From the NCBI RefSeq assembly GCF_024502345.1, contig NZ_JALDNN010000001.1: DNA of 64,000 bases. One strand, given 5' to 3'. This document shows, one piece after another, positions 3,649-38,671 of the stretch (position 1 is the first letter of the stretch; each line of letters begins with the position of its first letter). The notes under the pieces were generated by a model. It worked only from the letters and a program-made list of their open reading frames with translations, was not told the origin of the DNA and ran no database searches. This stretch comes from Escherichia coli (GTDB lineage: Bacteria; Pseudomonadota; Gammaproteobacteria; Enterobacterales; Enterobacteriaceae). Made by a program: the position numbers and the translations under genes.

Positions 3649-4371
3649 TCACTTATTCTGCGTGTGCAGCATATAGTTCACATCCACGCCGGGGCCGAGT
3701 TTAAAAGTATTAGTGATCGGGTTGTAATGTAGCCCGGTTATATGTCGCTCTTTAAGGCTTGTCTGATCTACCCAGCCAAGCAGCTCTGCCGGTTTAATAA
3801 ACTTCTTCACATCATGCGTGCCTTTGGGCACCATGCGCAAAATATATTCCGCGCCAACCACCGCCATCAGCCATGACTTGCCGTTGCGGTTAAGCGTCGA
3901 GAAAAAGACATCGCCGCCCGGTTTCACCAGTTGCGCACAGGCTCTGACCACTGACTGCGGATCGGGGACGTGCTCCAGCATCTCCATGCAGGTCACCACA
4001 TCATACTGCCCGGCATGTTTTGCCGCGTGCTCTTCCACGGTTTCCTGCACGTAATCCACCTGAATGCCGCTTTCCAGCGCGTGCAGCTTTGCCACCTGCA
4101 ATGGCTCAAAGCCCATATCCAGACCGGTCACCGTCGCGCCTTCGCGCGCCATACTCTCGGCCAGAATGCCGCCGCCACAACCGACATCGAGCACCTTTTT
4201 GCCAAATAAGCCGCCAGCACGCTCGGCAATATAGCCCAGACGCAGCGGGTTAATGCGGTGCAGCGGTTTGAACTCACCTTCCAGATCCCACCAGCGGGAG
4301 GCGACGGCTTCAAATTTAGCGATCTCTTCGTGGTCTACGTTATGGTTTACCGGCGATTTTTCGGCATTCAT
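3649..4371 (-). CDS. ubiG: ubiquinone biosynthesis O-methyltransferase
   Basis: Translation [23 protein letters not shown]... with SAM-binding VLDVGCGGG motif; 240 aa from the internal Met of the 256-aa track ORF. Confidence 0.93.
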
Positions 4372-4464
4372 TGGCACTTCTACTCCGTAATTGGCAAGAC
4401 AAACGAGTATATCAGGCATTGGATGTGAATAAAGCGTATAGGTTTACCTCAAACTGCGCGGCTG

Positions 4465-4473
4465 TGTTATAAT
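4465..4473 (+). promoter_or_regulatory. putative extended -10 element (TGnTATAAT) of gyrA promoter
   Basis: tgttataat about 45 nt upstream of the gyrA ATG, followed by an agaggga ribosome-binding site. Confidence 0.4.
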
Positions 4474-4517
4474 TTGCGACCTTTGAATCCGGGATACAGT
4501 AGAGGGATAGCGGTTAG

Positions 4518-7145
4518 ATGAGCGACCTTGCGAGAGAAATTACACCGGTCAACATTGAGGAAGAGCTGAAGAGCTCCTATCTGGATTATGCGATGTCGGT
4601 CATTGTTGGCCGTGCGCTGCCAGATGTCCGAGATGGCCTGAAGCCGGTACACCGTCGCGTACTTTACGCCATGAACGTACTAGGCAATGACTGGAACAAA
4701 GCCTATAAAAAATCTGCCCGTGTCGTTGGTGACGTAATCGGTAAATACCATCCCCATGGTGACTCGGCGGTTTATGACACGATCGTCCGTATGGCGCAGC
4801 CATTCTCGCTGCGTTACATGCTGGTAGACGGTCAGGGTAACTTCGGTTCCATCGACGGCGACTCTGCGGCGGCAATGCGTTATACGGAAATCCGTCTGGC
4901 GAAAATTGCCCATGAACTGATGGCCGATCTCGAAAAAGAGACGGTCGATTTTGTTGATAACTATGACGGCACGGAAAAAATTCCCGACGTCATGCCAACC
5001 AAAATTCCTAACCTGCTGGTGAACGGTTCTTCCGGTATCGCCGTAGGTATGGCAACCAACATCCCGCCGCACAACCTGACGGAAGTCATCAACGGTTGTC
5101 TGGCGTATATCGATGATGAAGACATCAGCATTGAAGGGCTGATGGAACACATCCCGGGGCCGGACTTCCCGACGGCGGCAATCATTAACGGTCGTCGCGG
5201 TATTGAAGAAGCTTACCGTACCGGTCGCGGCAAGGTGTATATCCGCGCTCGCGCAGAAGTGGAAGTTGACGCCAAAACCGGTCGTGAAACCATTATCGTC
5301 CACGAAATTCCGTATCAGGTAAACAAAGCGCGCCTGATCGAGAAGATTGCGGAACTGGTAAAAGAAAAACGCGTGGAAGGCATCAGCGCGCTGCGTGACG
5401 AGTCTGACAAAGACGGTATGCGCATCGTGATTGAAGTGAAACGCGATGCGGTCGGTGAAGTTGTGCTCAACAACCTCTACTCCCAGACCCAGTTGCAGGT
5501 TTCTTTCGGTATCAACATGGTGGCATTGCACCATGGTCAGCCGAAGATCATGAACCTGAAAGACATCATCGCGGCGTTTGTTCGTCACCGCCGTGAAGTG
5601 GTGACCCGTCGTACTATTTTCGAACTGCGTAAAGCTCGCGATCGTGCTCATATCCTTGAAGCATTAGCCGTGGCGCTGGCGAACATCGACCCGATCATCG
5701 AACTGATCCGTCATGCGCCGACGCCTGCAGAAGCGAAAACTGCGCTGGTTGCTAATCCGTGGCAGCTGGGCAACGTTGCCGCGATGCTCGAACGTGCTGG
5801 CGACGATGCTGCGCGTCCGGAATGGCTGGAGCCAGAGTTCGGCGTGCGTGATGGTCTGTACTACCTGACCGAACAGCAAGCTCAGGCGATTCTGGATCTG
5901 CGTTTGCAGAAACTGACCGGCCTTGAGCACGAAAAACTGCTCGACGAATACAAAGAGCTGCTGGATCAGATCGCGGAACTGTTGCGTATTCTTGGTAGCG
6001 CCGATCGTCTGATGGAAGTGATCCGCGAAGAGCTGGAGCTGGTTCGTGAACAGTTCGGTGACAAACGTCGTACTGAAATCACCGCCAACAGCGCAGACAT
6101 CAACCTGGAAGATCTGATCACCCAGGAAGATGTGGTCGTGACGCTCTCTCACCAGGGCTATGTTAAATATCAGCCGCTTTCTGAATACGAAGCGCAGCGT
6201 CGTGGCGGGAAAGGTAAATCTGCCGCACGTATTAAAGAAGAAGACTTTATCGACCGACTGCTGGTGGCAAACACGCACGACCATATTCTGTGCTTCTCCA
6301 GCCGTGGTCGCGTCTATTCGATGAAAGTTTACCAGTTGCCGGAGGCCACTCGTGGCGCGCGCGGTCGTCCGATCGTCAACCTGCTGCCGCTGGAGCAGGA
6401 CGAACGTATCACCGCGATCCTGCCGGTGACCGAGTTTGAAGAAGGCGTGAAAGTCTTCATGGCGACCGCTAACGGTACTGTGAAGAAAACCGTCCTCACC
6501 GAATTCAACCGTCTGCGTACCGCCGGTAAAGTGGCGATCAAACTGGTTGAAGGCGATGAGCTGATCGGCGTTGATCTGACCAGTGGCGAAGATGAAGTAA
6601 TGCTGTTCTCCGCCGAAGGTAAAGTGGTGCGCTTTAAAGAGTCTTCTGTCCGTGCGATGGGCTGCAACACCACCGGTGTTCGCGGTATTCGTTTAGGCGA
6701 AGGCGATAAAGTCGTCTCTCTGATCGTGCCTCGTGGCGATGGCGCAATCCTCACCGCAACGCAGAACGGTTATGGTAAACGTACTGCAGTGGCGGAATAC
6801 CCGACTAAGTCGCGTGCGACGAAAGGGGTTATCTCCATCAAGGTTACCGAACGTAACGGTTTAGTGGTTGGCGCGGTGCAGGTAGATGACTGCGACCAGA
6901 TCATGATGATCACCGATGCCGGTACGCTGGTACGTACGCGCGTTTCAGAAATCAGCATCGTGGGCCGTAACACCCAGGGCGTGATCCTCATCCGTACTGC
7001 GGAAGATGAAAACGTAGTGGGTCTGCAACGTGTTGCTGAACCGGTTGACGAGGAAGATCTGGATACCATCGACGGCAGTGCCGCGGAAGGGGACGATGAA
7101 ATCGCTCCGGAAGTGGACGTTGACGACGAGCCAGAAGAAGAATAA
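4518..7145 (+). CDS. gyrA: DNA gyrase subunit A
   Basis: 875-aa translation beginning [47 protein letters not shown]; acidic C-terminal tail; wild-type S83 and D87 in the QRDR. Confidence 0.98.
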
Positions 7146-7186: not shown

Positions 7187-7293
7187 GAATTGAAAAGTCC
7201 AGGCTGCAAAGTCTGGGCTTTTGTCGTATTAGGGCGCGGTAAAGTTTGGCTGTGTCCGTAAAAAATGGCTGGCTATACACAAGGAATGTGGCA

Positions 7294-14140
<6,847 letters not shown>

Positions 14141-15790
14141 GTGAACTGGCGCAGAATCGTCTGGCTATTGGCGTTGGTTACTCTGCCAACGCTTGCGGAG
14201 GAGACGCCGTTACAACTGGCACTGCGCGGTGCGCAGCACGATCAACTGTATCAGCTGTCGTCATCAGGCGTGACCAAAGCCTCGACATTACCTGACTCGC
14301 TCACCACGCCGTTAGGGAGTTTGTGGAAACTGTATGTTTACGCCTGGCTGGAGGATACCCATCAACCGGAGCAGCCCTACCAGTGTCGCGGAAACTCCCC
14401 GGAAGAGGTTTATTGTTGTCAGGCTGGGGAGAGCATAACGAGCGATACCGCGCTGGTACGTTCCTGTGGGCTCTATTTTGCGCCGCAGCGGTTGCATATT
14501 GGCGCAGATGTGTGGGGGCAATACTGGCAACAGCGTCAGGCACCTGCGTGGTTAGCGTCTCTTACTACGCTGAAGCCAGAAACCTCGGTAACGGTTAAAT
14601 CGCTGCTTGATTCATTAGCGACGTTACCTGCGCAAAACAAAGCTCAGGAAGTCTTACTGGATGTGGTGCTGGACGAGGCGAAAATCGGTGTCGCATCCAT
14701 GCTCGGTAGTCGGGTACGGGTGAAAACCTGGAGCTGGTTTGCCGATGATAAACAGGAAATCCGTCAGGGTGGTTTTGCTGGCTGGTTAACCGATGGTACA
14801 CCGCTGTGGGTTACTGGCAGTGGCACCAGCAAAACGGTACTGACCCGTTATGCGACGGTGCTTAATCGGGTTTTGCCAGTGTCGACGCAAGTTGCCAGTG
14901 GGCAATGTGTAGAGGTGGAGCTGTTTGCCCGCTATCCGCTGAAGAAAATCACAGCGGAAAAGAGTACGACGGCAGTAAAACCCGGCGTACTTAATGGGCG
15001 CTATCATGTGACGTTTACTAATGGTAACCACATTACGTTTGTCAGCCACGGTGAGACGACCTTACTGAGCGAAAAGGGCAAACTGAAATTGCAGTCGCAT
15101 CTCGATCGTGAAGAGTACGTTGCCAGAGTTCTGGATCGCGAGGCGAAAAGTACGCCCCCTGAGGCAGCGAAAGCCATGACCGTGGCGATTCGCACTTTTT
15201 TACAGCAAAACGCCAATCGGGAAGGCGATTGCCTGACCATCCCCGACAGCAGCGCCACGCAGCGTGTTTCTGCTTCGCCAGCGACCACGGGGGCGCGAAC
15301 GATGACCGCCTGGACGCAGGATCTCATCTATGCAGGCGATCCGGTTCATTATCATGGCAGTCGCGCTACCGAAGGGACACTTTCCTGGCGGCATGCCATG
15401 GCCCAGGCGGGGCAGGGAGAGCGTTACGACCAGATACTCGTGTTTGCTTATCCCGACAACAGCCTTAGCCGCTGGGGAGCGCCACGCTCAACCTGTCAGT
15501 TATTACCCAAAGCGAAAGCCTGGCTGGCGAAAAAAATGCCGCAGTGGCGGCGTATATTACAAGGCGAGACGGGGTACAACGAACCAGACGTGTTTGCGGT
15601 CTGTCGTTTAGTCTCAGGTTTCCCCTATACCGATCGGCAGCAGAAACGGCTGTTTATTCGTAACTTCTTTACGCTTCAGGATCGGCTGGATTTAACCCAT
15701 GAGTATCTGCACCTGGCCTTTGATGGTTATCCCACCGGGCTTGATGAGAACTATATCGAAACGCTGACCCGACAATTATTAATGGACTAA
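14141..15790 (+). CDS. yfaQ: DUF2300-family periplasmic protein
   Basis: 549-aa ORF starting with GTG immediately after the yfaS stop; signal peptide MNWRRIVWLLALVTLPTLA. Confidence 0.75.
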   Translation: MNWRRIVWLLALVTLPTLAEETPLQLALRGAQHDQLYQLSSSGVTKASTLPDSLTTPLGSLWKLYVYAWLEDTHQPEQPYQCRGNSPEEVYCCQAGESITSDTALVRSCGLYFAPQRLHIGADVWGQYWQQRQAPAWLASLTTLKPETSVTVKSLLDSLATLPAQNKAQEVLLDVVLDEAKIGVASMLGSRVRVKTWSWFADDKQEIRQGGFAGWLTDGTPLWVTGSGTSKTVLTRYATVLNRVLPVSTQVASGQCVEVELFARYPLKKITAEKSTTAVKPGVLNGRYHVTFTNGNHITFVSHGETTLLSEKGKLKLQSHLDREEYVARVLDREAKSTPPEAAKAMTVAIRTFLQQNANREGDCLTIPDSSATQRVSASPATTGARTMTAWTQDLIYAGDPVHYHGSRATEGTLSWRHAMAQAGQGERYDQILVFAYPDNSLSRWGAPRSTCQLLPKAKAWLAKKMPQWRRILQGETGYNEPDVFAVCRLVSGFPYTDRQQKRLFIRNFFTLQDRLDLTHEYLHLAFDGYPTGLDENYIETLTRQLLMD

Positions 15791-15794
15791 TGCT

Positions 15795-16571
15795 ATGCGA
15801 AAGATTTTTCTTCCGTTGTTACTGGTGGCGCTTTCGCCTGTCGCTCACAGTGAAGGTGTGCAGGAAGTCGAGATTGACGCACCGCTCTCAGGCTGGCATC
15901 CGGCAGAGGGCGAAGATGCCAGTTTTTCACAATCGATCAATTACCCGGCGTCGTCCGTCAATATGGCAGATGATCAAAATATCTCAGCGCAGATCCACGG
16001 CAAAATAAAGAATTATGCTGCGGCGGGTAAAGTTCAGCAGGGCCGGCTGGTGGTCAACGGTGCCAGTATGCCGCAGAGAATTGAATCCGATGGTTCATTT
16101 GCACGCCCTTATATTTTCACTGAAGGCAGCAACAGCGTGCAGGTCATCAGCCCAGATGGGCAAAGCCGACAAAAAATGCAGTTTTACTCAACGCTGGGCG
16201 CTGGAGTGATTCGCGCACGTTTACGGCTGGTTCTCTCGTGGGATACGGACAATACCGACCTCGATCTTCACGTTGTCACGCCCGATGGCGAACACGCCTG
16301 GTACGGTAACACCGTGCTGAAAAACAGTGGTGCACTGGATATGGATGTCACGACGGGGTATGGACCCGAGATTTTCGCCATGCCAGCGCCAGTTCACGGG
16401 CGCTATCAGGTGTATATCAACTACTACGGCGGGCGCAGCGAAACGGAATTAACCACCGCCCAACTGACGCTGATCACCGATGAAGGATCGGTCAATGAGA
16501 AACAGGAAACATTTATTGTACCGATGCGTAATGCTGGCGAGCTGACGCTGGTGAAAAGTTTTGACTGGTGA
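15795..16571 (+). CDS. yfaP: DUF2135-family secreted protein
   Basis: 258-aa ORF with signal peptide MRKIFLPLLLVALSPVAHS, last gene of the cluster. Confidence 0.75.
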   Translation: MRKIFLPLLLVALSPVAHSEGVQEVEIDAPLSGWHPAEGEDASFSQSINYPASSVNMADDQNISAQIHGKIKNYAAAGKVQQGRLVVNGASMPQRIESDGSFARPYIFTEGSNSVQVISPDGQSRQKMQFYSTLGAGVIRARLRLVLSWDTDNTDLDLHVVTPDGEHAWYGNTVLKNSGALDMDVTTGYGPEIFAMPAPVHGRYQVYINYYGGRSETELTTAQLTLITDEGSVNEKQETFIVPMRNAGELTLVKSFDW

Positions 16572-16845
16572 TCCATCCCTTCACACAACCTGGCTCTTTC
16601 TTTTTTCAGATAAGACTGCTGGGCGATCTGCCGACGCCAGGATATAACCATTAACAAGCGTCGGCAGATTGGTCATTTCTTATTTTTCGTACTGAGAACT
16701 GTCCATTTACTCCGGCTTTCCTGGTTAAGGCAATGGTTTCTAAGCGATACGCATTATTGCAATGGTGACAGAACATTGCGGTAACACGCTTTTACCGCTA
16801 CCTTAACCACACTCCATCGGTCACCTGAGGCGGAGCTTCGCCCCT

Positions 16846-19695
16846 TTGAAATACCTTGCTTCTTTTCGTACAACCCTGAAAGCCTCGCGCTACATGTTCA
16901 GAGCATTGGCGTTAGTGCTCTGGCTGTTGATTGCTTTTTCATCCGTTTTTTACATCGTTAATGCGTTACATCAGCGAGAATCGGAAATTCGTCAGGAATT
17001 TAATCTGAGTTCCGATCAGGCTCAGCGCTTTATTCAACGCACCTCTGATGTGATGAAAGAGCTGAAGTACATCGCCGAAAATCGCTTATCGGCAGAAAAC
17101 GGTGTGCTTTCCCCGCGTGGACGAGAAACGCAGGCGGATGTGCCTGCGTTTGAACCGCTGTTTGCCGACTCCGATTGTTCAGCAATGAGTAACACCTGGC
17201 GAGGTTCTCTGGAGTCATTGGCGTGGTTTATGCGCTACTGGCGCGATAATTTTTCTGCGGCTTACGATCTCAATCGGGTATTTTTAATCGGCAGCGATAA
17301 CCTCTGCATGGCCAATTTCGGTCTGCGTGATATGCCAGTGGAACGCGATACCGCGTTGAAAGCGTTGCATGAACGCATCAATAAATATCGAAATGCACCA
17401 CAAGATGATAGCGGCAGTAACCTCTACTGGATCAGCGAAGGTCCGCGCCCTGGCGTCGGGTATTTTTACGCGTTGACGCCAGTTTATCTGGCGAACCGGT
17501 TGCAGGCGCTTTTGGGTGTCGAGCAGACCATCCGGATGGAGAATTTTTTCTTACCTGGTACGTTGCCGATGGGGGTTACCATTCTTGATGAAAATGGTCA
17601 TACCCTGATTTCGCTTACCGGACCAGAAAGCAAAATTAAGGGCGATCCTCGCTGGATGCAGGAACGCTCCTGGTTTGGCTATACGGAAGGGTTCCGGGAG
17701 CTGGTGCTGAAGAAAAATCTGCCACCCTCATCGCTAAGCATCGTTTATTCGGTGCCGGTTGATAAGGTGCTGGAACGCATTCGCATGTTGATCCTTAACG
17801 CAATTTTGCTGAATGTGCTTGCCGGAGCTGCATTGTTTACTCTCGCGCGGATGTACGAGCGGCGTATTTTCATTCCGGCGGAAAGCGACGCCCTGCGACT
17901 GGAAGAACATGAGCAGTTCAATCGCAAGATTGTCGCCTCCGCGCCAGTGGGTATCTGCATTTTGCGTACCGCTGATGGCGTCAATATTTTAAGTAACGAA
18001 CTGGCGCATACCTATCTCAATATGCTTACGCATGAGGACCGCCAACGACTGACGCAAATTATCTGTGGGCAGCAGGTCAATTTTGTTGATGTCCTGACCA
18101 GCAACAATACCAATCTGCAAATCAGCTTCGTCCATTCGCGCTATCGTAATGAAAACGTGGCCATTTGTGTGCTGGTGGATGTTTCTTCGCGCGTGAAGAT
18201 GGAAGAGTCGTTGCAGGAGATGGCACAAGCAGCGGAACAGGCGAGCCAGTCAAAATCGATGTTCCTTGCCACCGTCAGTCATGAGCTGCGAACGCCGCTG
18301 TATGGCATTATCGGTAACCTGGATCTGTTGCAAACCAAAGAGTTACCGAAAGGCGTCGATCGTCTGGTGACGGCAATGAACAACTCTTCCAGCCTGTTGT
18401 TGAAAATTATCAGCGATATTCTCGATTTCTCGAAGATTGAATCAGAACAGTTGAAGATCGAACCGCGTGAGTTTTCACCGCGTGAAGTGATGAACCACAT
18501 CACCGCCAACTATTTACCGCTGGTGGTACGCAAGCAGTTAGGCTTGTACTGCTTTATTGAACCGGATGTGCCAGTGGCTTTAAATGGCGACCCGATGCGT
18601 TTACAGCAGGTCATCTCCAACCTGTTGAGTAACGCCATAAAATTCACCGATACCGGCTGTATAGTTTTGCATGTTCGCGCTGATGGCGATTATCTCTCTA
18701 TCCGTGTTCGCGATACCGGCGTGGGGATACCGGCGAAAGAAGTGGTGCGCTTGTTTGATCCCTTCTTCCAGGTCGGAACGGGCGTACAGCGAAACTTCCA
18801 GGGGACCGGTCTGGGTCTGGCGATTTGTGAAAAACTGATCAGCATGATGGACGGCGACATCTCGGTAGATTCAGAACCGGGAATGGGCAGCCAGTTTACC
18901 GTGCGTATTCCGTTGTACGGCGCTCAGTACCCGCAGAAAAAAGGCGTGGAAGGGTTGAGTGGTAAACGCTGCTGGCTGGCGGTCCGCAATGCGTCGCTCT
19001 GTCAGTTCCTGGAAACCAGTTTGCAGCGCAGCGGCATCGTCGTAACAACATACGAAGGGCAGGAACCGACTCCCGAAGATGTGTTAATTACTGACGAGGT
19101 AGTGAGTAAAAAATGGCAGGGTAGAGCGGTAGTGACCTTCTGTCGTCGCCATATTGGTATTCCGCTGGAGAAAGCGCCAGGGGAGTGGGTACACAGTGTG
19201 GCTGCTCCGCATGAGCTACCGGCATTGTTGGCGCGTATTTATTTGATCGAGATGGAGAGCGACGATCCTGCTAACGCTCTGCCGTCGACGGACAAAGCGG
19301 TCAGCGATAATGACGATATGATGATTCTGGTCGTGGATGATCATCCGATTAACCGACGTCTGCTGGCAGATCAGTTGGGATCGTTGGGCTATCAATGTAA
19401 AACCGCGAATGATGGCGTCGATGCGCTTAATGTACTTAGCAAGAATCATATTGATATCGTGCTTAGCGACGTCAACATGCCAAATATGGATGGTTACCGC
19501 TTGACGCAACGCATTCGTCAGTTGGGACTGACGTTGCCGGTAATCGGAGTAACTGCTAATGCGTTGGCTGAAGAGAAGCAGCGGTGTCTGGAGTCCGGTA
19601 TGGACAGCTGCCTGTCGAAGCCGGTAACGCTGGATGTGATAAAACAGACGCTGACGGTATATGCCGAGAGGGTCAGGAAATCGCGGGAATCGTAG
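16846..19695 (+). CDS. rcsC: hybrid sensor histidine kinase of the Rcs phosphorelay
   Basis: 949-aa ORF MKYLASFRTTLKASRYMFRALALVLWLL...; H-box SHELRTPL, ATPase motifs and C-terminal receiver domain (VVDDHPINRRLL); apparent TTG start. Confidence 0.96.
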   Translation: MKYLASFRTTLKASRYMFRALALVLWLLIAFSSVFYIVNALHQRESEIRQEFNLSSDQAQRFIQRTSDVMKELKYIAENRLSAENGVLSPRGRETQADVPAFEPLFADSDCSAMSNTWRGSLESLAWFMRYWRDNFSAAYDLNRVFLIGSDNLCMANFGLRDMPVERDTALKALHERINKYRNAPQDDSGSNLYWISEGPRPGVGYFYALTPVYLANRLQALLGVEQTIRMENFFLPGTLPMGVTILDENGHTLISLTGPESKIKGDPRWMQERSWFGYTEGFRELVLKKNLPPSSLSIVYSVPVDKVLERIRMLILNAILLNVLAGAALFTLARMYERRIFIPAESDALRLEEHEQFNRKIVASAPVGICILRTADGVNILSNELAHTYLNMLTHEDRQRLTQIICGQQVNFVDVLTSNNTNLQISFVHSRYRNENVAICVLVDVSSRVKMEESLQEMAQAAEQASQSKSMFLATVSHELRTPLYGIIGNLDLLQTKELPKGVDRLVTAMNNSSSLLLKIISDILDFSKIESEQLKIEPREFSPREVMNHITANYLPLVVRKQLGLYCFIEPDVPVALNGDPMRLQQVISNLLSNAIKFTDTGCIVLHVRADGDYLSIRVRDTGVGIPAKEVVRLFDPFFQVGTGVQRNFQGTGLGLAICEKLISMMDGDISVDSEPGMGSQFTVRIPLYGAQYPQKKGVEGLSGKRCWLAVRNASLCQFLETSLQRSGIVVTTYEGQEPTPEDVLITDEVVSKKWQGRAVVTFCRRHIGIPLEKAPGEWVHSVAAPHELPALLARIYLIEMESDDPANALPSTDKAVSDNDDMMILVVDDHPINRRLLADQLGSLGYQCKTANDGVDALNVLSKNHIDIVLSDVNMPNMDGYRLTQRIRQLGLTLPVIGVTANALAEEKQRCLESGMDSCLSKPVTLDVIKQTLTVYAERVRKSRES

Positions 19696-19890
19696 GACGG
19701 ATAAGGTGTTTATGCCGCATCCGGCATTCAGTGCAAATGCCAGATGCGACGCTGACGCGTCTTATCTGGCCTACTTTAATGTAATCTGTTGAAATAATGG
19801 GAATCGTAGGACGGATAAGGCGTTTACGCCGCATCCGGCAATCGGTGCAAATGCCAGATAAGACACTAACGCGTCTTATCTGGCCTACAG
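19696..19890. repeat. REP/BIME elements (two copies) between convergent rcsC and rcsB
   Basis: Two near-identical units gacggataaggygtttaygccgcatccggca...gccagat.agacgc...gcgtcttatctggcctac. Confidence 0.7.
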
Positions 19891-31627: not shown

Positions 31628-32100
31628 GTGCCACATCCGGCATGGTATGCCGGATGTGGCGTATGCTGATAAGACGCGCCAGCGTCGCATCAGGCAACCG
31701 GCTCGGGCGTTAGATGTCGGATGCGGCGTGACCGCCTTATCCGACCTACGGGGTGGAGCACTTCACAGCGGTGTAGGCCTGATAAGACGCGTCAGCGTCG
31801 CATCAGGCAACCGGCTCGGACGTTGGATGTCGGATGCGGCGTAACCGCCTTATCCGACCTACGGGGTGGAGCACTTCACAGCGGTGTAGGCCTGATAAGA
31901 CGCGTCAGCGTCGCATCAGGCAACCGGCTCGGACGTTGGATGTCGGATGCGGCGTAACCGACTTATTCGACCTACGGGGTGGAGCACTTCACAGCGGCGT
32001 AGGCCTGATAAGACGCGTCAGCGTCGCATCAGGCAACCGGCTCGGGCGTTAGATGTCGGATGCGGCGTGACCGCCTTATCCGACCTACGGGGTGACGCAC
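31628..32100. repeat. mqo terminator hairpin followed by a tandem array of about four 113-bp BIME/REP units
   Basis: Perfect 13-bp inverted repeat ccacatccggcat/atgccggatgtgg, then a 113-bp unit (gataagacgcg.cagcgtcgcatcaggcaaccggctcgg.cgtt.gatgtcggatgcggcgt.accgccttatccgacctacggggtggagcacttcacagcgg.gtaggcct) repeated with few substitutions. Confidence 0.8.
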
Positions 32101-32111
32101 TTCACAGCAGT

Positions 32112-32600
32112 TTAGCGAACTACCGCGTTGTCAATTTTCTCTTCCGCCTTCCAGACGCGGTACTTCACATCTACATTGTCTGGCGTATACACCACGATCG
32201 GCAGCTTGCTGTTGTAACGCAGCATTCCAGCATCGCCCAGATACGCGGTGACAAATTTCTTCTCTTTCTTGCCATCCGGGCAGGCCATCATCGTGGAAAC
32301 CGGCGAGCTAACTTTATCAAAGACATAATAATCATAGCCCCAGCCTTCCAGCGTTTTGCTTTCCAGCTTCCCGCCGAGACGATGCAAATTGCAATCGACT
32401 TCCAGCGTCTGACCGATTAACAGTTCTACTTTCAGGGTAGATTCATCTTCTTGCGGGGTTAACTGAATCACCTGACGCTTCATGCCTTTTTCAGCTTGTG
32501 GATAAGGCGCGATTTTTTCCAGTGGCTGGACGCTCTCTGCCGCCCAGGCGGAAGTGGTGGCGAAAGCGGCAAACAATACTGCAGGTAGAATGGTCTTCAT
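32112..32600 (-). CDS. eco: ecotin, periplasmic serine protease inhibitor
   Basis: 162-aa translation [71 protein letters not shown]... Confidence 0.95.
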
Positions 32601-37789: not shown

Positions 37790-38229
37790 AAAGCCATGAC
37801 CTGAAGAAAGCGCTGTGTCAATGGACGGCGATGCTGGCCCTGGTGGTAAGCGGCGCGGTTTGGGCGGCTAATGGCGTCGATTTTAGCCAGTCGCCGGAAG
37901 TATCCGGGACGCAGGAAGGGGCCATTCGGATGCCAAAAGAGCAGGATCGGATGCCGCTGAACTATGTGAATCAGCCGCCAATGATCCCGCATAGCGTTGA
38001 AGGTTATCAGGTAACGACCAATACCAACCGCTGCTTGCAGTGCCACGGTGTCGAAAGCTATCGCACCACTGGCGCGCCGCGTATCAGTCCTACTCACTTT
38101 ATGGACAGCGACGGCAAAGTGGGCGCGGAAGTGGCTCCGCGTCGTTATTTCTGTCTGCAATGTCACGTACCGCAGGCCGATACCGCGCCAATCGTGGGGA
38201 ATACCTTTACCCCATCAAATACCGAATGA
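37786..38229 (+). CDS. napB: periplasmic nitrate reductase dihaem cytochrome c subunit; final codons appear replaced at the prophage junction
   Basis: [27 protein letters not shown]... with two CxxCH motifs (CLQCH x2); ends ...NTFTPSNTE whereas the remembered reference ends ...TPSKGYGK. Confidence 0.88.
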   Translation: MKSHDLKKALCQWTAMLALVVSGAVWAANGVDFSQSPEVSGTQEGAIRMPKEQDRMPLNYVNQPPMIPHSVEGYQVTTNTNRCLQCHGVESYRTTGAPRISPTHFMDSDGKVGAEVAPRRYFCLQCHVPQADTAPIVGNTFTPSNTE

Positions 38230-38671
38230 AGTGGACTATCGAAAATTGCAGGAACTGTTCACGCGGATCGCCATCGATAAACATATTCAGCAAAAGCTTG
38301 AACATCCTCACCACCAGCTGGTGGCTACCTACCAGTCATTAAACCGCAAGTATTCAGAATTGCTGGAGGAATACAAAATCCTTCGGCGCTGCTTCTCTGT
38401 TTCCGCTCTTGTTCCTTATACCGACGTATGGACACATAAGCCTGTTCAGTTTTATCCAGGCAAACATCCATGCGAAAAACCTGCCGACATGCTGAAACAG
38501 ATCATTAGCGCCAGCAGCAGACCGGGGGATATCGTTGCCGATTTCTTTATGGGCTCTGGTTCAACTGTGAAAGCTGCAATAGAACTTGGCCGTCGGGCGA
38601 TCGGCGTAGAACTGGAGGCAGACAGGTTTATACAGACCACCGAAGAGGTGGAAAAACTGAAAAAATCATAA
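38219..38671 (+). pseudogene. 5'-truncated phage DNA N6-adenine/N4-cytosine methyltransferase (C-terminal fragment only)
   Basis: HPCEKP and DIVADFFMGSGSTVKAAIELGRRAIGVELE (FxGxG SAM-binding motif I) present; no DPPY catalytic motif and no in-frame start after the napB junction. Confidence 0.6.

Follow-up and report, generated by a model that had tools for sequence, protein, structure and literature searches.

In Escherichia coli K-12, the genes atoSC-atoDAEB (b2219-b2224), which form the system for acetoacetate and short-chain fatty acids, are located between yfaP and rcsC. In a stretch of 64,000 nucleotides from another E. coli chromosome, which will be hereafter referred to as the window, yfaP and rcsC are adjacent. 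This arrangement raises the question of whether the ato genes were lost from the site or had never entered it, what became of the sequence at the junction, and whether the genes could be located elsewhere in the genome. Here, we compared the window with complete genomes of E. coli and with other Escherichia species. The window very probably carries an old deletion, of single origin, of the chromosomal atoSC-atoDAEB block.

On its + strand, the window has yfaA, yfaT, a yfaS-type gene, yfaQ, yfaP and rcsC, and yfaP is the final gene of the yfaA-yfaT-yfaS-yfaQ-yfaP cluster. Downstream of rcsC, rcsB and rcsD are found on the minus strand, followed by ompC. Both yfaP and rcsC are intact and co-directional, and the limits of their open reading frames (ORFs) match the RefSeq annotation of a genome that is 99.9% identical; yfaP is annotated at identical coordinates in NZ_CP109924.1. 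The best match of the window is the O125ac:H10 strain C 236-04A, a human isolate, with which positions 1-38219 are collinear at 99.9%. No ORF of 80 or more amino acids was found within the spacer between yfaP and rcsC. In K-12 (strain NCM3722), the 7,490 bp from the yfaP stop codon to the rcsC start comprise atoB, atoE, atoA, atoD, atoC and atoS, all on the opposite strand. The initial annotation had described the adjacency with a spacer of 274 bp, which the ORF limits (16572-16845) reproduce exactly, and had placed the ato genes between yfaP and rcsC in K-12, which is right in NCM3722. It had also stated that atoSC-atoDAEB is absent at the site. The comparison with the K-12 interval bears this out, as does a tblastn search of the 64-kb window with the K-12 Ato proteins, in which no ato gene was found and only rcsC and rcsD gave matches, through their paralogous kinase and receiver domains. 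The K-12 alignment that it had proposed for defining the indel breakpoints was run; the missing segment begins immediately past the yfaP stop codon and reaches approximately atoS codon 50, and solid homology is found again at ~16770.

Table 1 Features of the yfaP-rcsC locus, with positions in the window.
Feature	Positions	Strand	Description
yfaQ	14141-15790	+	ORF
yfaP	15795-16571	+	Intact ORF of 258 aa, 98% identical to K-12 YfaP
yfaP-rcsC spacer	16572-16845		274 bp, compared with 7,490 bp in K-12; net loss 7,216 bp
Left breakpoint zone	16572-16596		K-12 homology solid through 16572, then weak (CCTTCAC vs CCTTCGC)
atoS remnant, codons ~23-50	16597-16676	-	72.5% DNA identity to K-12 atoS
Hairpin	16620-16675	+	Perfect core of 12 bp, loop of 20 nt
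T-rich run TTTCTTATTTTT	16676-16687	+	Directly 3' of the extended stem
atoS remnant, first codons	16677-16690	-	ATG changed to ACG (CGT on the + strand, 16688-16690), from alignments
Former atoS-rcsC intergenic DNA	16691-16770		50-62% identity to K-12, with an 11-bp gap
rcsC upstream region	16771-16845	+	100% identical to K-12
rcsC	16846-19695	+	Intact, 949 aa, TTG start, 99.7% identical to K-12 RcsC

The spacer retains a short piece of the lost block. Segment 16597-16664 has 78% identity over 69 nt to the 5' part of the K-12 atoS coding sequence (blastn, E = 2.6e-9), at the syntenic place and in the correct orientation, and a variant atoS allele matched the remnant with E = 8e-6 in a search of a 28-Gb collection. 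Compared with the K-12 ato locus, which occupies the same chromosomal site and has flanks 96-100% identical to those of the window, the window lacks the whole 7.2-kb block except for a decayed stretch of less than 100 nt from the 5' end of atoS. Two further gaps relative to K-12 interrupt the remaining sequence. The first, of 52 bp (about atoS codons 6-22), is located between 16676 and 16677, and the second, of 11 bp, is inside the former atoS-rcsC intergenic zone; homology to K-12 across 16677-16722 is uncertain. The differences between the remnant and K-12 atoS are distributed 7:10:10 over the three codon positions; of the codon changes, 14 are nonsynonymous and 3 synonymous, and the reading frame of the remnant is broken after SEK. 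This even spread, together with the frame break, points to the decay of a pseudogene and not to a diverged functional allele, and the presence of an atoS 5' remnant in the spacer argues for a deletion instead of an ancestral empty site. No intact atoS of the window type, from which the remnant could derive, was found: all Escherichia AtoS N-termini retrieved are of the K-12 type, and the 88% AtoS allele P0120 departs from this type only beyond the N-terminus. At the junction itself, no IS end, terminal repeats or transposase fragment was found, and the spacer consists only of atoS-derived and unique sequence. A 20-mer, TTTTTCAGATAAGACTGCTG (16602-16621), is shared without change by the remnant, E. 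whittamii and intact K-12 atoS, with surroundings that are 30-40% diverged. The core of this 20-mer, CAGATAAGAC, is also one arm of the rcsC/rcsB terminator repeat (19855-19864), probably by chance.

In K-12, the terminator between yfaP and atoB is a hairpin, CACCCGATA...TATCGGGTG, with a T-run, which folds at -25.9 kcal/mol. This hairpin is absent from the window. We propose that the ancestor had the K-12 arrangement, in which yfaP would have been followed by the terminator, by atoB-E-A-D-C-S, and then by the divergently transcribed rcsC. A deletion of ~7.2 kb, from just past the yfaP stop codon to about atoS codon 50, would have eliminated the yfaP/atoB terminator and left rcsC head-to-tail with yfaP. 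The additional gaps of 52 bp and 11 bp would have arisen inside the remaining sequence, and the leftover atoS would have decayed as a pseudogene. The product would be the 274-bp haplotype that now segregates in E. coli and that is found also in E. whittamii.

The breakpoints and gaps are the same in four E. coli carriers, which are a handful of SNPs apart; the carriers aligned with the window were S19-651, E8, EF7-18-51 and E. whittamii. E. whittamii has the same breakpoints and the same 52-bp and 11-bp gaps, and its remnant is 93.8% identical to segment 16597-16676 of the window. Its flanks are 85-94% identical overall to those of the window, and the JC distances at four-fold sites, 0.34-0.60, correspond to species-level divergence. 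The sharing of both the breakpoints and the internal gaps indicates that the deletion is old. The copy of E. whittamii has an in-frame stop in the remnant, by which a small protein encoded there was ruled out.

The atoS remnant also contains an inverted repeat, whose existence the initial annotation had recognized but whose length it had given as 8 bp. The perfect repeat is of 12 bp, ATCTGCCGACGC (16626-16637) and GCGTCGGCAGAT (16658-16669), with a loop of 20 nt, and it can be extended to a stem of 17 base pairs (16620-16637 and 16658-16675). An arm of at least 8 bp occurred in 7.5% of dinucleotide shuffles of the spacer and would thus not be noteworthy, whereas an arm of 12 bp occurred in one of 5,000. 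Only three perfect repeats of at least 12 bp are found in the window, this one included, and the other two are located at the 3' ends of genes, at the convergent junction of rcsC and rcsB and after mqo. The hairpin folds as RNA at -29.7 kcal/mol (z = -4.6), and none of 200 shuffles was as stable; the equivalent segments of K-12 atoS and of E. whittamii fold at -14.1 and -21.0 kcal/mol, respectively. The T-rich run TTTCTTATTTTT begins at 16676, adjoining the extended stem but 7 nt past the perfect 12-bp core, and it stands beside the hairpin because the 52-bp gap brought the two together. A REP/BIME element or another dispersed repeat was ruled out, as the core of the spacer has a median of 1 matching place per genome (maximum 2).

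In several characteristics, the hairpin resembles intrinsic terminators such as that of K-12 yfaP/atoB and the bidirectional one of rcsC/rcsB. It has a G+C-rich perfect stem, and its distance from the final gene of the operon is 50-100 nt; the T-rich tract, which adjoins the extended stem but not the perfect core, may be a further resemblance. It differs from them by its loop, which is of 20 nt instead of 3-8 nt. A scan for consensus promoters and terminators detected no promoter and passed over the repeat, whose loop exceeds the limit of 3-8 nt used in the scan. As a putative terminator, the 12-bp hairpin with the T-run may end the transcripts of the yfa operon before rcsC and replace the lost terminator; this assignment is far weaker than that of the deletion, and we consider it less likely than not.

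It is an even bet that the 12-bp repeat has no function and is a by-product of neutral decay, perhaps through the template-switch 'quasipalindrome correction' of a weak repeat in atoS. A proto-repeat is found at the same place in K-12 atoS, with 5 Watson-Crick and 3 G-T pairs out of 12 (counted by hand from the alignment), and the arms differ from K-12 at 10 of 24 positions, compared with 5 of 20 in the loop. In E. whittamii, the arms have two uncompensated mismatches and the T-run is weaker. The absence of any Rfam match at E <= 1 in 16300-17100, and a loop length that is atypical of terminators, point in the same direction. However, the position and the T-run of the repeat resemble those of the two other long perfect repeats, both at gene ends, and between E. 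coli and E. whittamii the block around it has diverged far less than the adjacent four-fold sites. Only 5 of the 80 nt of the hairpin block differ between the two species, whereas the adjacent four-fold sites differ at 6 of 23 positions at the end of yfaP and at 8 of 21 at the start of rcsC (P = 4e-7 at p = 0.29). Such low divergence is compatible with an acquired function, most simply that of a replacement terminator, although it could come instead from a short recombination tract and not from selection. We consider it rather unlikely that the 80-bp remnant block was reshaped after the deletion into a hairpin with a T-run, possibly by template-switch correction of the weak repeat, and is now selected as a terminator or insulator. 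If true, selection on the block would explain why its divergence between E. coli and E. whittamii is about five times lower than that of the neighbouring synonymous sites.

Further 3' in the spacer, GGTTAAGG (16723-16730) is one of the few islands in the diverged zone that are conserved between both haplotypes. It is complementary to CCTTAACC (16801-16808), in the invariant region upstream of rcsC, and a 7-bp hairpin, GCGGTAA...TTACCGC (16778-16798), is located between the two. These elements may form a structure in an rcsC leader.

A scan for YfaP in species-representative genomes gave four informative Escherichia loci, in E. whittamii, E. albertii, Escherichia sp. MOD1-EC7003 and E. coli E69. 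E. albertii has a K-12-type terminator after yfaP, in a contig that ends 64 nt past yfaP, and E. coli E69 is ato-positive. Beyond these four loci, E. ruysiae and E. marmotae have an AtoS of the K-12 type. Escherichia sp. MOD1-EC7003 (L010, 10780-11536) has K-12-type sequence and an ato deletion with different breakpoints, in which atoS codons 1-90 (91% identity at the amino acid level), the last ~40 nt of atoB and the K-12-type yfaP terminator are kept. The K-12-type loci of these other species, together with the deletion in MOD1-EC7003, indicate that the ancestral state was ato-positive and that loss or erosion was repeated. There is very little room for the opposite history, in which the window would be an ancestral empty site and K-12 and its relatives would have gained ato by horizontal insertion. 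The divergence from K-12 does end abruptly, at ~16770, the two haplotype classes are very different within a zone of 200 bp, and the ato block is mobile as a unit, being found on the LAA island with its limits at the stop codon of atoB and 29 nt upstream of atoS; all three would suit an insertion. Nevertheless, the spacer holds the 5' remnant of atoS, with its start codon lost and its frame broken, which largely refutes an empty site, and K-12-type sequence is present at this place in E. albertii (left junction), E. ruysiae, E. marmotae and MOD1-EC7003, the last being a second, independent deletion from the K-12-type state.

A REP-like sequence is inserted after yfaP in MOD1-EC7003. Eroded ato loci are found at the native site in several E. 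coli contigs that encode the 88% AtoS allele P0120 (L025, L026 and L027): in one, no atoD, atoE or atoB is called, and in one, atoE is absent and both atoD and atoB are truncated. In L026, atoB directly adjoins gyrA, and the whole yfa cluster is missing.

The age of the deletion is less simple to read from the divergence of the remnant zone, which differs by 28-50% from K-12-type sequence and by 6-22% between E. coli and E. whittamii. At four-fold sites, the distances of the window are 0.02-0.05 to K-12 and 0.44-0.54 to E. albertii. With a constant neutral clock, the deletion would precede the radiation of the genus, which is at odds with the intact K-12-type loci in several Escherichia species. 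Possible reasons for the excess divergence are a long-lived trans-species polymorphism with recombination or introgression between species, an early mutational burst, and a partial non-homology of 16677-16722.

Within E. coli, the junction is frequent. A 1-kb query spanning it was contiguous in 1,537 of the 5,426 complete genomes (28%), and in nearly all remaining genomes the query splits at its positions 568-571, which correspond to 16767-16770 of the window; atoD-atoA is present in 3,925 of the 5,426. Contiguous junctions are found in O157:H7 EDL933 and Sakai, O55:H7, O111:H8 and O169:H41, while the ato genes are present in K-12, Nissle 1917 and E2348/69. Across 1,536 genomes, the identity of the 199-bp spacer core is 97-100%, and nearly all carriers have no annotated feature in it; one has a 41-aa 'hypothetical protein' there. 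The O157:H7 strains EDL933 and Sakai, O55:H7 and many B1 strains (O111:H8, O169:H41 ETEC) have the same 274-bp spacer, breakpoints, atoS remnant and 12-bp repeat, and in O157:H7 and O55:H7 the 199-bp core is 100% identical to that of the window. There is no difference of substance between the window and the junctions of the O157:H7 type, and the flanks of the window are closest to those of O125ac:H10 C 236-04A (99.9%). What the initial annotation had called a strain-level difference in gene content is indeed a gene-content polymorphism, but one at the level of lineages, which includes the O157:H7 references among its 1,537 carriers. The loss of ato at yfaP-rcsC is thus real but ordinary; it is already visible in reference genomes and holds nothing surprising for a specialist. 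A literature search found no paper that explicitly describes the chromosomal ato-deletion haplotype.

The presence of the junction in a genome does not by itself decide whether the ato genes are absent from it. In LEE-negative STEC, module I of the LAA island carries atoS, atoC and atoDAEB beside hes at pheV (PMC5539235, PMC6174562, PMC13340028), as ORF6-11 of the island (PMC5539235; PMC6174562). Module I (Montero et al. 2017, PMC5539235) likewise presents the ato block as a unit of presence or absence in E. coli, but it is located outside the window, and its ato copy is of the K-12 type (98.2%). At least 36 genomes carry both the junction and atoDA (1,537 + 3,925 - 5,426). In one of these, 2011C-3911, which is located at the low-identity end of the atoDA ranking, rcsC and yfaP are 274 bp apart on the chromosome and a full ato block is also present. 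The order of its island is yqgA, tRNA-Phe, integrase, sisA, phosphoethanolamine transferase, hes, atoS, atoC, atoD, atoA, atoE, atoB and IS66. The ato block (L035, 7467-14746) comprises 7,280 bp with 98.2% identity to K-12 and has no yfaP or rcsC flank, being located between hes and a fragment of IS66. Its homology to K-12 has one limit exactly at the stop codon of atoB and the other 29 nt upstream of the ATG of atoS, and because of these exact boundaries it is not the reciprocal product of the deletion in the window. Since 2011C-3911 has both the junction and an island-borne ato block, adjacency alone is no proof of the absence of ato from a genome. The refuting condition named in the initial annotation, ato genes at another place in the genome, is thus observed in a minority of the genomes that have this junction.

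For the source genome of the window, an ato block elsewhere, for instance on an LAA-type island at pheV, selC or thrW, is highly improbable, even with the precedent of 2011C-3911, where the full atoSC-atoDAEB is beside hes on LAA at pheV, and of the other genomes that combine the junction with atoDA. In the 60 closest complete genomes, no atoDA was found elsewhere on the chromosome: a chimeric query of the junction plus atoDA matched a single place in each, which makes an island-borne copy in the source strain unlikely. Moreover, LAA is typical of LEE-negative B1 STEC (PMC5539235), whereas the best match of the window is the O125ac:H10 human isolate. A chimeric query of the atoS 5' end plus hes did not have LAA genomes among its top matches.

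The spacer query matches two places in S19-651. This strain has an LAA-like island (L033/L034, 3,570,000-3,626,000) with an integrase, a sisA-like gene, a phosphoethanolamine transferase, a hes-like gene and two-partner secretion genes, and the island adjoins an integrative conjugative element of the SPI-7 type. No ato sequence was found in this LAA-like island, and IS600 is located at the place expected for atoS.

An assembly artefact at yfaP-rcsC is ruled out by the 1,537 complete genomes with the junction and by the collinearity of 1-38219 at 99.9%. The collinearity with the closest genome ends at 38219/38220, 16 nt before the napB stop codon. From 38220, the sequence starts in the middle of a phage DNA-methyltransferase gene, which is followed by genes for an endolysin, Rz, the terminase large subunit, portal, major head, tape measure and baseplate. 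This junction was contiguous in none of the 5,421 complete E. coli genomes with a match, and the phage half matches a prophage gene of Nissle 1917. The junction resembles an end-to-end joining of two contigs, or an assembly error, more than an ordinary insertion of a prophage, and the 207-aa ORF at 38048-38671 spans the join as a fusion. Between mqo and eco, the window has a tandem repeat with a unit of 113 bp (31666-32115; 4.0 copies, 94% match) that contains a REP-like sequence, is 72-74% similar to 19691-19840 just downstream of rcsC, and has one copy fewer in the closest complete genome. The yfaS-type alpha-2-macroglobulin gene (9521-14140) is intact, with an ORF of 1,539 aa that is annotated as 9626-14140 in the closest genome; yfaS of K-12 is a pseudogene with an internal stop. 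In the closest genome, yfaA is annotated as frameshifted (region 7246-8982 of the window).

From the established role of the ato genes in K-12, a strain with this junction and without an island-borne copy would likely have no use of acetoacetate and short-chain fatty acids that depends on AtoDA, AtoE and AtoB, and no AtoSC signalling. To a polymorphism that is already visible in reference genomes, the present analysis adds the atoS remnant, the haplotype of E. whittamii, an independent loss in another Escherichia, the length and low divergence of the repeat, and the coexistence of the junction with island-borne ato. The junction marks O157:H7, O55:H7, many B1 strains and the source strain of the window, and these lineages should lack AtoSC signalling and AtoDAEB-dependent substrate use, unless an LAA island restores them. 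Because ato is missing there, metabolic models based on K-12 and the assumptions of ato engineering do not transfer to these lineages. For the evolution of the genus, the locus is an example of an old deletion haplotype that extends across species, of repeated independent erosion, and of the same block riding on a pathogenicity island.
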